The notes below the pieces were generated by a model. The model saw only the letters and a list, made by a program, of their open reading frames with translations. It did not search any database and was not told the origin of the DNA. A stretch of DNA of 24,000 nucleotides from an uncultured Acidobacteriota bacterium (GTDB taxonomy: Bacteria; Acidobacteriota; Terriglobia; UBA7540), in the NCBI GenBank assembly GCA_963808085.1, contig CAWEFC010000006.1:137328-161327 (forward strand), read 5' to 3'. The position numbers and the translations under genes were made by a program. Every line of letters begins with the position of its first letter. Position 1 is the first letter of the stretch. Positions 12,169 through 23,669 of the stretch are shown here, piece by piece.

Positions 12169-13803
12169 GTGCCAAAATTCAGCAAAGTCTTTGAGGTCTC
12201 GAGCCCTCACATCGAATCTCTGGCGGCGCTCCCGGAACCCGTGCGTCCGATCGAGTCCATCCTGGCCGTGGCGGAGAGAAGCCCCGGCCTCGATGTGGAG
12301 GACGCCGCTTCGCTGATGGCCTGGGCGCGCGACCCCGAACGGCGCGCGGAAATCCACGCCGCGGCGCAGAGGGTTCGCGAGCGGGTGGCGCCACCCACGG
12401 TTGAGTTTGTCATTCCGGTATATCTCACTAGTTATTGCCAGAACGAATGCCTCTATTGTGGTTACCGGGAAAGCAATGCGCTGGCCGAGCGCGCGCGCCT
12501 GAGCCTGGATGAATTCAGCCGGGAGCTCGACTTGATTCTTTCCTGGGGCCACCGGCAGATTGAGCTGGTGCTTTCGGAAGACCCCGAGTTTGGCCCCGAA
12601 GTGGTGGCGCGCTACGTCGAATTGACCCGCCGGAGGCTCGACGCGCTGGGCGGTGGCGTGGTGGGGCTCTGCTCGCCCGTGTATGAGCGTGATGACTATG
12701 TGCGGCTGCGCGAGGCCGGCCTTGAATGGGTGGTGGAGTGGCAAGAGACTTATCACCAACCCCATTTCGATCGCTGGCATGTGGCGGGCTCGCCCAAGCG
12801 GGATATCGAATATCGCCTGGACTTGTGGGACCGCGTCATTGCCGCGGGCATCAAGAAGGTTGCCCTGGGCGCGCTGCTGGGTCTCTACGACTGGCGCTTC
12901 GACGCGCTGGCCACCATCGAGCACGGCAATTACCTGCGGCGAACCTATGGCCTGGAGCCGCACGCGATCGGCATCCCGCGCCTCAAGCCCGCGCGCGGCG
13001 TGCTGGCGTCGCAGAAGGCATCGCGCTTCACGGTCGAGGATGACGACTACCGTTTGATCCTCAGCCTCTATCATCTTGCCTTTCCGCGCTCGCGGTTGTT
13101 CTTCAATACCCGCGAGAATTACGAGATGAATATCTCGATGGTGGCCGCGGGCGACCTCTTCACCGTGGACTGCGATACCTTTCCGGGGGGCTACCTTCGT
13201 AATGACACCCCTGGGCAATTTTCGACATTCGGATTTCCCACGCGACAAGAGGTTGCCGCGGTATTCGCCGCGCGCGGGCTCAGGAGTTTGTACCTGGAGG
13301 CAGAAACGCCCCTGGCTGCTGCTCATTGCTCCCCGACATCTGCGCCCGCCGACATCGCGAAGTGGCAAGGGGAGCACGAAACGATACGCGCCGCCTTGCA
13401 CGATTGGCAGGCGATTCTCGCGGGGTTGGATTTGCACCACGGTGACAAGCTCATCGACCGGCAGGCGGCGCTCGGCGCGTTGCGCATGACGATGCATTTT
13501 TTCAAGACTTATGTCATGGACCATTGCCGCCGGGAAGAGAATGGTGTGTTCCCTGCGTTTGCGGAAGGCCGCGGATTGACCGCGAACCTCCAGACATTTC
13601 GAGATGGGCACGAGCGCTTGGGAATCGATTTGGACAAGTTTGAACGGCAGATGGCCTCTTACCAGCTCTCGGGCGACCCCTGCGTGCTGCTCAATATGGG
13701 GCAGCGCATTATCCGGGAACTGGGCGAGCACCTTGCCATGGAAGAAAGGTTTGCGCCAGAGCAGGCTCTCGTGAGTCGTTCGGGGACGCTCACTTCAAAT
13801 TGA
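12169..13803 (+). CDS. Radical SAM enzyme of the ThiH/HydG (tyrosine-lyase-like) type fused to a C-terminal hemerythrin-like (HHE) domain
   Basis: VYLTSYCQNECLYCGY is the ThiH/HydG-style CxxxCxxC motif. The C-terminal ~150 aa carry H...E / HCRREENGVFP / EHLAMEE motifs typical of hemerythrin-like di-iron domains. GGAGGT lies 9 nt upstream of the GTG start. Confidence 0.75.
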   Translation: MPKFSKVFEVSSPHIESLAALPEPVRPIESILAVAERSPGLDVEDAASLMAWARDPERRAEIHAAAQRVRERVAPPTVEFVIPVYLTSYCQNECLYCGYRESNALAERARLSLDEFSRELDLILSWGHRQIELVLSEDPEFGPEVVARYVELTRRRLDALGGGVVGLCSPVYERDDYVRLREAGLEWVVEWQETYHQPHFDRWHVAGSPKRDIEYRLDLWDRVIAAGIKKVALGALLGLYDWRFDALATIEHGNYLRRTYGLEPHAIGIPRLKPARGVLASQKASRFTVEDDDYRLILSLYHLAFPRSRLFFNTRENYEMNISMVAAGDLFTVDCDTFPGGYLRNDTPGQFSTFGFPTRQEVAAVFAARGLRSLYLEAETPLAAAHCSPTSAPADIAKWQGEHETIRAALHDWQAILAGLDLHHGDKLIDRQAALGALRMTMHFFKTYVMDHCRREENGVFPAFAEGRGLTANLQTFRDGHERLGIDLDKFERQMASYQLSGDPCVLLNMGQRIIRELGEHLAMEERFAPEQALVSRSGTLTSN

Positions 13804-22595: not shown

Positions 22596-22709
22596 GTGCC
22601 CTCGCTCGACCTGTGATTTCAATGCGACATCTACCCTTGCAATCCTCAGTGTATCCCTCGCTTCACCGCACGTCAAAGACTGCGTGAGATAGGCTCCATG
22701 GCAATTCGC

Positions 22710-22738
22710 TTGACTTTCACGAGCATTGCCATTAATCT
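22710..22738 (+). promoter_or_regulatory. Candidate promoter for the leader ORF and tRNA array
   Basis: TTGACT (22710-22715), a 17-nt spacer, then TAATCT (22733-22738). Confidence 0.45.
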
Positions 22739-22763
22739 AGAGTTTCATTCGAAGGAACATATA

Positions 22764-22847
22764 ATGCGATTTTCCTTAGGCTCCTCACTCTTGTCGCTAT
22801 CGTCGCTGAGTTATCTCAGCATGAACAGGGCGGAGGGGTCTGGGTAA
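22764..22847 (+). CDS. Candidate 27-codon leader peptide, Ser/Leu/Tyr-rich
   Basis: GAAGGAA lies 6 nt upstream of the ATG. The peptide is MRFSLGSSLLSLSSLSYLSMNRAEGSG. It is followed by a terminator and the tRNA array. Too short for the ORF track; see the finding. Confidence 0.4.
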   Translation: MRFSLGSSLLSLSSLSYLSMNRAEGSG

Positions 22848-22868
22848 CCGGAATTACATCAAAACCCC

Positions 22869-22904
22869 AAAAAGCCGCCCGTAAAAAGGCGGCTTTTTTA
22901 TTTT
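22869..22904 (+). terminator. Intrinsic terminator (bidirectional in shape) abutting the first tRNA
   Basis: AAAAAGCCGCC-cgtaaaaa-GGCGGCTTTTTTATTTT. The T-tract ends at 22904 and tRNA 1 starts at 22905. Confidence 0.75.
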
Positions 22905-22981
22905 GCGCGGGTGATGCAATGGGCAGACATGGCGGTCTCAAAAACCGCTTCTTGTGGGTTCAAATCCCTCTCCGCGCACCA
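22905..22981 (+). tRNA. tRNA with Leu anticodon CAA, 77 nt, short (5-nt) variable loop, CCA encoded
   Basis: Manual fold:
- acceptor GCGCGGG/TCCGCGC
- D arm ATG(C)-AATGGGCAG-(A)CAT
- anticodon arm GCGGT-CTCAAAA-ACCGC
- variable TTCTT
- T arm GTGGG-TTCAAAT-CCCTC (one mismatch)
- A73, then CCA. Confidence 0.75.
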
Positions 22982-22982
22982 G

Positions 22983-23073
22983 GGAAGCGTGGCTCAGTGG
23001 CGACGGCAGCGGGCTGTAGACCCGCCACCCCTTGTGGGTAACACCGAAGGTTCGACTCCTTCCGCTTCCACCA
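22983..23073 (+). tRNA. tRNA-Tyr (GUA), 91 nt, long variable region, CCA encoded
   Basis: Manual fold:
- acceptor GGAAGCG/CGCTTCC
- anticodon arm GCGGG-CTGTAGA-CCCGC
- ~20-nt variable region CACCCCTTGTGGGTAACACC
- T arm GAAGG-TTCGACT-CCTTC
- A73, then CCA. Confidence 0.8.
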
Positions 23074-23079
23074 AGATTT

Positions 23080-23158
23080 GCCGGGATGGTCAAAATGGCA
23101 AAGGCGCTCCGTTCAGACCGGAGAGATTTTGCGAGTTCGACTCTCGCTCCCGGCACCA
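23080..23158 (+). tRNA. tRNA with Leu anticodon CAG, 79 nt, short (7-nt) variable loop, CCA encoded
   Basis: Manual fold:
- acceptor GCCGGGA/TCCCGGC
- D arm GTC-AAAATGGCAAA-GGC
- anticodon arm CTCCG-TTCAGAC-CGGAG
- variable AGATTTT
- T arm GCGAG-TTCGACT-CTCGC
- A73, then CCA. Confidence 0.75.
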
Positions 23159-23164
23159 AGTTCG

Positions 23165-23238
23165 GCCCAAGTGACGCAATCGGTAGACGTGCCACTTTGA
23201 GATGGTGGATGTTGGAGGTTCGAATCCTCTCTTGGGCA
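23165..23238 (+). tRNA. tRNA with Leu anticodon GAG, 74 nt to the discriminator, short (5-nt) variable loop, CCA not fully encoded (ACC then next tRNA)
   Basis: Manual fold:
- acceptor GCCCAAG/CTTGGGC
- D arm ACG(C)-AATCGGTAG-(A)CGT
- anticodon arm CCACT-TTGAGAT-GGTGG
- variable ATGTT
- T arm GGAGG-TTCGAAT-CCTCT
- A73. Confidence 0.75.
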
Positions 23239-23240
23239 CC

Positions 23241-23328
23241 GGAAGAATGGCCGAGCGGTAAGGCACCGAGTTGCTAACTCGGAGTCTGGGTAAAACCGGC
23301 GCAGGTTCGATCCCTGTTTCTTCCGCCA
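23241..23328 (+). tRNA. tRNA-Ser (GCU), 88 nt, long variable arm, CCA encoded
   Basis: Manual fold:
- acceptor GGAAGAA/TTCTTCC
- D region GCCGAGCGGTAAGGCA
- anticodon arm CCGAG-TTGCTAA-CTCGG
- 18-nt variable arm
- T arm GCAGG-TTCGATC-CCTGT
- G73, then CCA. Confidence 0.85.
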
Positions 23329-23335
23329 AATTTTC

Positions 23336-23425
23336 GGAAGGTTGGCCGAGTCCGGTAAGGCTCCGGTCCTGAAAACCGGTGACTCCGTAAAAGGAGCAGG
23401 GGTTCGAATCCTCTACCTTCCGCCA
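23336..23425 (+). tRNA. tRNA-Ser (UGA), 90 nt, long variable arm, C at position 33, CCA encoded
   Basis: Manual fold:
- acceptor GGAAGGT/ACCTTCC
- D region GCCGAGTCCGGTAAGGCT
- anticodon arm CCGGT-CCTGAAA-ACCGG
- variable arm TGACTCCGTAAAAGGAGC
- T arm AGGGG-TTCGAAT-CCTCT
- G73, then CCA. Confidence 0.8.
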
Positions 23426-23430
23426 ACATT

Positions 23431-23504
23431 GGGGCCATAGCGAAATGGCATAGCAGAAGTCTTAAACACTTCGTTTCCGGGTTCGAATCCCGGTGGCCCC
23501 ACCA
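23431..23504 (+). tRNA. tRNA with Leu anticodon UAA, 74 nt, short (4-nt) variable loop, CCA encoded
   Basis: Manual fold:
- acceptor GGGGCCA/TGGCCCC
- D arm GCGA-AATGGCA-TAGC
- anticodon arm GAAGT-CTTAAAC-ACTTC
- variable GTTT
- T arm CCGGG-TTCGAAT-CCCGG
- A73, then CCA. Confidence 0.75.
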
Positions 23505-23514
23505 AAGCAGGAAA

Positions 23515-23541
23515 CAATTGCCGATCGCCGATTGCCGATTG
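23515..23541. repeat. Heptamer repeat block ATTGCCG x ~3.5 (inverted relative to 23597-23669)
   Basis: CA ATTGCCG ATCGCCG ATTGCCG ATTG. Confidence 0.8.
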
Positions 23542-23596
23542 AGCGCCAGGGATTGACCAATGCCGGCCGACAACAAAAAACTCACCCTCTGCGGAC

Positions 23597-23669
23597 AATC
23601 GGCAATCCTCAATCGACAATCGGCAATGGTGAATTGACAATCGGCAATCGGCAATCGAAAATCGTCAAT
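23597..23669. repeat. Tandem heptamer array, consensus CAATCGG, about 10.5 units, ending at the tsaD start codon
   Basis: CAATCGG CAATCCT CAATCGA CAATCGG CAATGGT GAATTGA CAATCGG CAATCGG CAATCGA AAATCGT CAAT, followed directly by ATG. Confidence 0.85.

Follow-up and report, generated by a model that had tools for sequence, protein, structure and literature searches.

A phage-type cassette of class II tRNA genes with short-armed tRNA-Leu and a putative leader attenuator in uncultured Terriglobia

Near the end of a 24,000-nt stretch of DNA from an uncultured Acidobacteriota bacterium (contig CAWEFC010000006.1; the whole stretch is hereafter the window), seven transfer RNA (tRNA) genes are packed on the forward strand, and the four that bear leucine anticodons fold without the canonical long variable arm. 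The question raised by this locus is whether the lineage has an aberrant tRNA-Leu or whether the genes came from elsewhere. Our answer is that this is not a lineage with an odd tRNA-Leu, and that the locus is apparently a phage-type, self-regulating reserve of class II tRNAs that has settled in the chromosome. We consider it likely, taking the explanation as a whole, that a phage-type short-arm cassette was inserted in the ancestor of two uncultured Terriglobia (Acidobacteriota) lineages, with ribosome-mediated transcription attenuation as the most probable mechanism of its control; the gene structures, the insertion, the phage relatives, the conservation, the covariation and the agreement of leader composition with tRNA content are demonstrated, whereas the regulation by stalling, the leucylation and the biological use of the tRNAs are what we infer. 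An earlier interpretation made from the letters of the window (hereafter the sequence-only reading) had singled out the short-armed genes and overlooked that they sit in a foreign cassette, that their form is a hallmark of phage and accessory tRNA clusters, and that a leader open reading frame (ORF) and a terminator lie upstream of them. Handles of the type L149 denote sequences with which the window was compared.

On the window, ARAGORN predicted seven plus-strand tRNA genes within 600 nt (22905-23504; its gene lengths count the 3' CCA), and all seven matched the Rfam family RF00005 with scores of 47.8-60.3 bits (gathering score 29; E 1.5e-7 to 5.4e-11). The array comprises only the three class II families (Leu, Ser and Tyr), as had been claimed, with intergenic spacers of 1, 6, 6, 0, 7 and 5 nt (0-7 nt in the earlier account), and CCA is encoded by six of the seven genes, tRNA-Leu(GAG) terminating in ACC and directly adjoining the next gene. 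Without CCA the Leu genes measure 71-76 nt, lengths that leave no room for a long arm, and the canonical one (>10 nt with a stem) is absent from all four. ARAGORN and the Rfam alignments agree with the sequence-only reading on four Leu-anticodon tRNAs of 74-79 nt with variable loops of 4-7 nt; covariance-model folding uncovered no overlooked long arm in them, and the covariance-model alignments bear out the long arms described for Tyr and both Ser tRNAs. In each of the four, the Leu anticodon (CAA, CAG, GAG or UAA) occupies positions 34-36 of a 7-nt loop with U33, the acceptor and T stems have the standard 7 and 5 bp (a 7/5 cloverleaf whose variable loop is short), and the determinants of the Escherichia coli leucyl-tRNA synthetase (LeuRS), namely A73, A14, A15:U48 and G18G19 (listed in PMC6614811), are all present in the covariance-model alignment; A73 had been correctly noted throughout. 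The D arm had been described as a 3-bp stem with a 13:22 mismatch and a Leu-like loop, which holds for Leu(CAA), Leu(GAG) and Leu(CAG) (loop AAWNGGNAR) and fails for Leu(UAA), where G12:A23 is mismatched, A13 pairs with U22 and the D loop is 7 nt long. The covariance-model alignment also contains a U50:U64 mismatch in Leu(CAA). Allo-tRNAs (8/4 or 9/3 acceptor/T branch and a long variable arm; PMC5389517) were considered as well, and were ruled out by the 7/5 stems and the short loop.

The foreign origin of the array emerges from its surroundings. The GalU protein of the window is present on contigs of metagenome-assembled genomes, and the names of its homologues place it in Terriglobia. In four relatives (L127-L130, with GalU 93, 90, 87 and 84% identical) galU and tsaD lie side by side in divergent orientation, without a tRNA gene in between, and in a ~90% identical, syntenic lineage (L173/L178) the cassette stands at the same place as in the window; the comparison with related genomes that had been proposed earlier hence returned the array as missing from the former and present in the latter. 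BLAST homology to L127 ends at 22679 and the native sequence is back at ATTGCCGAT (23517), from which it follows that ~837 bp were inserted (boundaries uncertain by 1-2 nt). Between the window and L173 the tRNAs are 93-100% identical (98.7% for Leu(CAA), 100% for Ser(TGA) and Leu(TAA)), the terminator 94% and the leader ORF 92%, against 79-82% for native non-coding spacers and 76% for the 5' part of the cassette, while coding DNA differs by ~10%. Since the tRNAs, the terminator and the leader are better conserved than the nearby non-coding DNA, the comparison indicates that they have been under purifying selection after the insertion.

Outside both lineages the best match lies on a viral contig (L149), in which the tRNAs are directly followed by genes for terminase and portal. 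The available sequence begins inside tRNA-Tyr and continues in the order of the window, Tyr-Leu(CAG)-Leu(GAG)-Ser(GCU)-Ser(UGA)-Leu(UAA), with identities of ~98% for Leu(CAG) and ~90% for Tyr. Among deposited phage genomes the sole Leu match was Tunturi_5, a 308-kb jumbo phage of Tunturiibacter (80.7% for Leu(CAG)); a plasmid search gave no match, and no other phage genes surround the cassette in the window. When short homologues are aligned with long ones from related phage clusters, the match extends over the whole length except for a clean gap of 10-14 nt at the variable arm, the Leu(CAA) of the window aligns with long-arm phage homologues everywhere but at this arm, and Leu(GAG) differs from its L149 counterpart by a compensatory change at 30:40 (C-G to G-C).

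The short-arm form has a wide distribution. A genome scan with a degenerate pattern (Leu-type D arm, Leu anticodon, short variable loop; one genome per species) also caught ordinary long-arm tRNA-Leu at ~100 of the 120 loci listed, GTTC being frequent inside variable arms, and the true short-Leu loci that it yielded are a sample rather than a census. Among the matches listed, at least 20 bacterial loci hold true Leu tRNAs of 73-79 nt (Acidobacteriota, Actinomycetota, Myxococcota, Cyanobacteria, Verrucomicrobiota, Gammaproteobacteria, Bacteroidota and Chloroflexota), 18 of 20 being housed in dense tRNA arrays. A second pattern, applied to IMG/VR, recovered the family from 23 viral contigs that are nearly all tRNA clusters, and a third returned matches in 24 metagenome contigs. 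At least 74 distinct short Leu tRNAs align as one cloverleaf, in which 98.3% of the base-pair cells are standard pairs, compensatory (both-sided) changes occur at 20 of 20 base pairs and the covariation score reaches 0.93 (0.22 for shuffled and <=0.17 for slid partners); A15, U48, G18 and A35 do not vary, while the conservation of A14 and A73 is 90% or above. Judged by this conservation, the four genes of the window are genuine, selectively maintained and functional-looking tRNA-Leu genes minus the long variable arm (type I), and the short-arm form is a hallmark of phage and accessory tRNA clusters, to which the family appears almost confined. Bacterial short-arm tRNA-Leu figures in textbooks as a curiosity, and type I tRNALeu has been regarded as a near-unique rarity in bacteria (PMC6614811), of which the family, as aligned here, is a new and broad extension; in the literature searched (subscription journals lay outside its coverage) we found no description of short-arm tRNA-Leu in phages. 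A covarying family spread over at least eight phyla bears on recognition by LeuRS and on why phages carry tRNAs.

SerRS and bacterial TyrRS depend on the long variable arm and bacterial LeuRS does not, and these established identity rules would account for only Leu having lost it. We found a single experimental precedent, in Streptomyces coelicolor, whose only LeuRS charges a type I tRNALeu(CAA) (Fan et al. 2019, PMC6614811); as the sole CAA isoacceptor, this tRNA proved impossible to delete (PMC6614811). Like the tRNAs of the window, it has a Leu anticodon and a short variable loop (5 nt) in a cloverleaf that is otherwise normal, and it coexists with long-arm isoacceptors, which the genome of the window presumably also has, to judge from its cassette-free relatives; however, it is one short isoacceptor of five and a stand-alone housekeeping gene, whereas the window has four short isoacceptors that are clustered, foreign and phage-related. 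Animal mitochondrial tRNA-Leu, likewise type I, operates in a separate compartment with its own LeuRS and has no sequence relationship to the family, and the window tRNAs, unlike it, retain the canonical bacterial elbow and D arm. Leucylation of the four tRNAs is plausible and not assured; charging by the Terriglobia enzyme cannot be taken for granted because the LeuRSs of other tested bacteria rejected the Streptomyces molecule (PMC6614811). The sequence-only reading, in which these were arm-deleted tRNA-Leu with their Leu traits kept and leucylation plausible, gains strength from the clean arm gap, the conservation and covariation over 74 sequences and the S. coelicolor precedent, while the alternatives that it had entertained (mischarged or regulatory tRNAs, pseudogenes) drew no support, and its proviso that short-arm Leu might be the norm of the lineage did not hold, as close relatives are without the cassette and the form is typical of phage and accessory clusters.

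Upstream of the tRNA genes the cassette contains what may be their control region (Table 1). Leu, Ser and Tyr contribute 16 of the 26 residues of the leader ORF (binomial p=2.8e-5) and 15 of the 16 in codons 4-19, a run that contains a cognate codon for every one of the seven tRNAs downstream (TTA-UAA, TTG-CAA, CTG-CAG, CTC-GAG, AGT/AGC-GCU, TCA/TCG-UGA and TAT-GUA) and which includes both TTA and CTA, each only 4% of the Leu codons in the genes of the window. The terminator scan gave a hairpin of 11 pairs (6 G-C) followed by a T run, stable in every full-length fold; since it ends 1 nt before tRNA-Leu(CAA), there is no space for a second promoter. L173 keeps both hexamers of the putative promoter (TTGACT and TAAACT) with 8 of the 17 spacer bases changed, and the consensus scanner did not list this promoter because its -10 matches at 3 of 6 positions; TATAAT at 22760-22765 was rejected as an alternative -10 because of its overlap with the start codon and its lack of conservation in L173. 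Homologues of the leader were found in L167, L172, L179 and L158, and terminators upstream of the tRNAs also in L146/L158, L167, L172 and L179; in L179, two Tyr codons in the run are accompanied by two downstream tRNA-Tyr genes. The leader matched no Rfam family even at E up to 10, and a T-box riboswitch (specifier loop, T-box antiterminator; RF00230) likewise gave no match up to E 10.

Table 1. Features of the inserted cassette (positions in the window)
Feature	Position	Strand	Description	Basis or conservation
Inserted tRNA cassette	22680..23516	+	~837 bp with promoter, leader ORF, terminator and seven tRNAs; between galU and tsaD	
Promoter-like site	22710..22738	+	-35 TTGACT 22710-22715, 17-nt spacer, -10 TAATCT 22733-22738	inferred from sequence
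Shine-Dalgarno GAAGGA	22751..22756	+	7 nt before ATG	kept in L173 and L179, loosely in L167 and L172
Leader ORF	22764..22847	+	27 codons + stop, MRFSLGSSLLSLSSLSYLSMNRAEGSG	sequence
Regulatory codon run (codons 4-19), putative	22773..22820	+	TCC TTA GGC TCC TCA CTC TTG TCG CTA TCG TCG CTG AGT TAT CTC AGC	
Antiterminator 5' strand (region 2)	22828..22838	+	GGGCGG 22828-22833, GGGG 22835-22838; leader codons 22-25	predicted
Intrinsic terminator	22869..22904	+	AAAAAGCCGCC-CGTAAAAA-GGCGGCTTTTT then TATTTT; ends 1 nt before first tRNA	
tRNA-Leu(CAA)	22905..22981	+	77 nt; short 5-nt variable loop UUCUU, type I	ARAGORN, Rfam
tRNA-Tyr(GTA)	22983..23073	+	91 nt; long variable arm	ARAGORN, Rfam
tRNA-Leu(CAG)	23080..23158	+	79 nt; short 7-nt variable loop AGAUUUU, type I	ARAGORN, Rfam
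tRNA-Leu(GAG)	23165..23240	+	76 nt; short 5-nt variable loop AUGUU, type I	ARAGORN, Rfam
tRNA-Ser(GCT)	23241..23328	+	88 nt; long variable arm	ARAGORN, Rfam
tRNA-Ser(TGA)	23336..23425	+	90 nt; long variable arm	ARAGORN, Rfam
tRNA-Leu(TAA)	23431..23504	+	74 nt; short 4-nt variable loop GUUU, type I, atypical D arm	ARAGORN, Rfam

The correspondence between leader codons and downstream tRNAs recurs in phages with differing tRNA sets. Tunturi_5, for which the published description counts 43 tRNAs and is silent on their form or regulation (PMC11924767), has 41 by ARAGORN, arranged in three blocks, with a small ORF and a terminator ahead of each one. Block 1 (Leu, Cys, Tyr, Ser) follows the leader MKTLCLSSYCLSSSLSLSDGWD..., block 2 (Asn, Gln, Gly, Thr, Pro, His, Ala, Phe) the leader ...FAVPATAGNPAGQQGTNA... 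and block 3 (Trp, Asp, Met, Lys, Val, Arg, Glu, Ile) a leader annotated as gp308, ...DIRGKRGVVVDTWDITIRGERKWSDVRDMRVLRER...; a 3x3 table of leader residues by the amino-acid sets of the blocks has a diagonal of 16, 25 and 33 (chi2=50.8, p=2.5e-10). The matching cluster of this phage holds four Leu (two of them short-armed), one Cys, one Tyr and three Ser tRNAs, and its block 1 leader has two Cys codons to go with the tRNA-Cys, the window having neither. Elsewhere, the leader MKNLSSNSLSYSSSLLLSGLVLPDGWDG stands before Tyr-Leu4-Ser3 (L146/L158), the leaders of L167, L172 and L179 precede their own arrays, and further Leu/Ser/Tyr-rich leaders occur in L138, L134, L171, L177 and L162; in L145 a leader of Leu, Pro, Gln, His, Asn and Lys lies ahead of just those tRNAs, in L142/L155 a Pro/Met-rich ORF lies ahead of five Pro tRNAs and one Met tRNA, and an array from a Polyangia metagenome-assembled genome (L048) also has a leader. 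A blind scan gave p<0.001 in 7 of 151 forward upstream regions and in none of 123 reverse-complement controls.

The three leader-terminator units of Tunturi_5, at about 231157-231314, 239171-239400 and 251573-251805 of PP885688.1, have some further peculiarities. In the GenBank record the block 3 leader is the hypothetical protein gp308 (L133 1573-1722, PP885688.1 251573-251722), and leader ORFs of such kind are probably hidden among other phage 'hypothetical proteins'; the tRNA genes under the Tunturi_5 match are unannotated in the same record. A CTA codon is present both in the leader of the window (22773-22820) and in that of block 1 (L131 5497-5595), and neither block has a tRNA-Leu(UAG). 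A tRNA nucleotidyltransferase (gp279, CCA-adding) and an RtcB-type tRNA ligase (gp296) adjoin the tRNA blocks (L131 7475-8923, L132 43762-44943), and HNH endonucleases are interspersed among the tRNAs, the Anabaena array having the same gene company.

Folds of transcripts cut before the 3' arm of the terminator, which mimic co-transcriptional folding and are weaker evidence than full-length folds, predicted an antiterminator in which GGGCGG (22828-22833) pairs with CCGCCC (22875-22880) and GGGG with CCCC (22865-22868). A simulated ribosome on codons 19-25 breaks this pairing and one stalled on the codon run leaves it intact. In such cut-transcript folds all six homologous leaders (too few for statistics) have the 5' arm of the terminator paired with codons 17-24 of the ORF, a segment in its last third that directly follows the codon run, and the three Tunturi_5 leaders have the same layout; in L158 the terminator arms are exchanged (GGCGGC...GCCGCC) and the upstream partner is exchanged to match (AGCGGCCUC). 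We propose that, when charged Leu, Ser or Tyr tRNAs are scarce, the ribosome would stall in the codon run of the leader, GGGCGG/GGGG (22828-22838) would pair with CCCC/CCGCCC (22865-22880) and block the terminator, and RNA polymerase would read through into the tRNA genes; with plentiful tRNAs, the ribosome would move over region 2, the terminator would form and the tRNA genes would be off. The outcome would be a reserve of the three class II families whose supply is under feedback control.

A number of observations weigh against this proposal. Full-length minimum-energy folds retain the terminator at every simulated ribosome position, so that the antiterminator would have to win kinetically; in classical attenuators, too, full-length folds keep the terminator and the outcome is set by folding kinetics. 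The antiterminator also forms in cut transcripts without any ribosome, a ribosome at the stop codon of the Tunturi_5 block 1 leader leaves region 2 uncovered, and the predicted -10 is weak, with its 3 matches to the six-base consensus. The CTA and two TCC codons of the window leader have no directly cognate tRNA in the cassette (tRNA-Ser(GGA) is lacking in spite of the TCC pair), the leaders of L134 and L145 are without a canonical U-tract terminator, and the ORF of L138 runs through the hairpin. On the side of the tRNAs, the failure of the LeuRSs of other tested bacteria to charge the Streptomyces type I tRNALeu (Fan et al., PMC6614811) means that charging by the Terriglobia enzyme is not assured.

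These difficulties give some room to the view that the upstream ORF is a chance low-complexity ORF, or a gene for a small hydrophobic peptide with its own terminator, and that the tRNAs are transcribed independently. Leu/Ser-rich peptides are indeed common low-complexity sequences, the promoter and the antiterminator are predictions, and the full-length folds always retain the terminator; yet we regard this as unlikely, given that the terminator lies 1 nt before the first tRNA with no space for another promoter, that its pairing partner covaries, that the composition of the leaders tracks the tRNA content in the three Tunturi_5 blocks (p=2.5e-10) and in other phages with differing sets, and that the reverse-complement controls hold nothing comparable.

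As regards the tRNAs, the short-arm Leu genes could be decaying relics or pseudogenes of a phage tRNA cluster, functionless in the bacterium, and a foreign, small cassette with no other phage genes nearby would suit such a history, as would the U50:U64 mismatch of Leu(CAA), the odd D arm of Leu(UAA) and the incomplete CCA of Leu(GAG). Against it stand tRNAs that are 93-100% identical between lineages differing by ~10% in coding and 18-24% in non-coding DNA, a family with compensatory changes at all 20 pairs and invariant tertiary positions, and Rfam scores well over the threshold, all of which make decay very improbable. We find it just as hard to believe that the tRNAs carry another amino acid, or act as decoys or regulators (recoding or titrating): loss of the arm removes a feature that distinguishes class II tRNAs, and several bacterial LeuRSs rejected the Streptomyces type I tRNALeu (PMC6614811), but A73, A14, A15:U48, G18G19 and the Leu-type D arm are conserved over 74 sequences, the homology to long-arm tRNA-Leu is clear, and a leader that combines Leu with Ser and Tyr codons fits the conventional identities. 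Scarcely credible, finally, is that short-arm tRNA-Leu is the normal housekeeping form of the lineage. The undeletable type I tRNALeu(CAA) of S. coelicolor, a sole CAA isoacceptor (PMC6614811), implies that domestication does happen; however, relatives at 84-93% GalU identity are without the cassette, and Leu must therefore be decoded by other genes there, these tRNAs have their closest relatives on contigs of phages, and the cassette is without a tRNA-Leu(UAG).

The reading that we prefer, an inserted phage-type cassette under attenuation, resembles the classical attenuators (trp, his, leu, thr, ilv, pheA, pheST) in its short ORF with a run of putative regulatory codons, in the terminator ahead of the downstream genes, and in a predicted alternative pairing, which would overlap the 3' part of the ORF and compete for the 5' arm of the terminator. 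While the classical systems govern genes of amino-acid biosynthesis or of synthetases and mostly respond to one or two amino acids, the regulated genes would here be those of the tRNAs themselves, and the tRNA-block leaders, unlike the classical ones, have a mixed codon set that mirrors the downstream tRNAs and extends to as many as eight amino acids (Tunturi_5 blocks 2 and 3). The leader-controlled tRNA block is apparently a new variant of attenuation: a leader peptide ahead of tRNA genes is described neither in Rfam nor in the literature searched (most subscription journals lay outside its coverage). If the reading is true, it would define an undescribed attenuator class, with tRNA genes controlling their own expression by way of translation. 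The regulation of bacterial tRNA genes is generally placed mainly at their promoters, and a leader attenuator before them would couple tRNA synthesis to decoding capacity in a direct feedback loop. The only inducible array studied, that of Anabaena, is silent until induced by translational stress and is controlled at its promoter by 9-nt direct repeats (PMC8421152), whereas the window cassette has a leader ORF and a terminator, for which control is predicted; attenuators of this kind, if real, would explain the stress induction of 'silent' tRNA arrays. As both Tunturi_5 and its host, the acidobacterium Tunturiibacter psychrotolerans, are in culture (PMC11924767), the three units of this phage, with their differing codon sets, make the idea directly testable.

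Supernumerary tRNA genes that lie densely clustered on phages, plasmids and chromosomes and spread horizontally are known as tRNA arrays (tRNA array units, L-arrays), and a role in countering defence has been suggested for them (Tran et al. 2016, PMC4758250; Santamaria-Gomez et al. 2021, PMC8421152; Yano et al. 2026, PMC12803027). The cassette shares with horizontally transferred arrays and phage clusters the dense same-strand genes with short spacers (seven in 600 nt), the patchy presence and the homologues in mobile elements (L149, Tunturi_5). A 'tRNA array unit' in the sense of Tran et al. (PMC4758250) needs at least 20 genes, whereas the cassette has seven and only class II families, and it is a fragment or sub-block of such arrays and no array unit. 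Neither short-arm tRNA-Leu nor leader peptides are mentioned in PMC4758250, PMC8421152 or PMC12803027.

The tRNA set could serve as a backup when class II tRNAs are depleted, for example by toxins that act on long variable arms. MenT3 requires the long variable loop to extend the 3' ends of tRNA-Ser and is counteracted by a CCA-adding enzyme, and class II tRNAs seem to be favoured by the abortive-infection toxin AbiEii (PMC11541572; bioRxiv 2026.01.19.700257). By analogy, short-arm tRNA-Leu would be without the handle of such toxins, and evasion of variable-arm toxins is an attractive hypothesis; a likeness to phage counter-defence tRNAs is the presence of a CCA-adding enzyme and RtcB beside the tRNA blocks of Tunturi_5. 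No toxin of the MenT/AbiE kind was identified in the window or linked to these phages. More broadly, and tentatively enough that we would not expect it to stand in every part, Acidobacteriota and soil phages, together with chromosomal cassettes, might carry block-specific 'codon meter' leaders that antiterminate upon depletion, the class II block being an answer to host toxins that recognise the long arm, such as nucleotidyltransferases of the MenT/AbiE type, and its arm-less Leu tRNAs toxin-proof. The toxin link, if true, would be a new move in the contest between phages and hosts over tRNAs.

Several tRNAs of the compared sequences are unusual in other ways. The Leu(GAG) homologue of L149 (177-253) has C33 in place of the near-universal U33 (loop UCGAGAG). 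Three viral tRNAs called Ile(UAU) measure 92-93 nt (L136 8004, L139 13510, L140 739), with either a long extra arm or an intron, and in L137, L151 and L080 Asn(GTT) measures 86-89 nt and Lys(TTT) 88 nt; all of these are class II-like tRNAs in which such anticodons are unexpected. By ARAGORN, tRNA-Tyr(GTA) is only 70 nt long in L134 (3763) and 79 nt in L078 (3045), the variable arm having perhaps been lost or shortened; a Tyr tRNA without the long arm is not expected to be tolerated by bacterial TyrRS. L145 has, at 1773 and on the opposite strand beside the tRNA block, a tRNA with a CUA anticodon (amber suppressor) that ARAGORN labels Pyl.

The native spacer between galU and tsaD (23517-23669) carries heptamers, GCCGATT on one side and AATCGGC on the other, with three 21-nt direct repeats and many inverted pairs, which may be an operator array for the divergent promoters. 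They also occur in the cassette-free L127 and are 79% conserved relative to L173; the heptamers were considered as ends of the cassette and rejected, being native to the galU-tsaD spacer of relatives that lack it. Farther away in the window, an ORF of 544 amino acids (12169-13803) has a radical SAM domain and, at its C-terminal end, a hemerythrin domain, and it adjoins a DUF1015 protein and an O-antigen-type ABC transporter/glycosyltransferase cluster.

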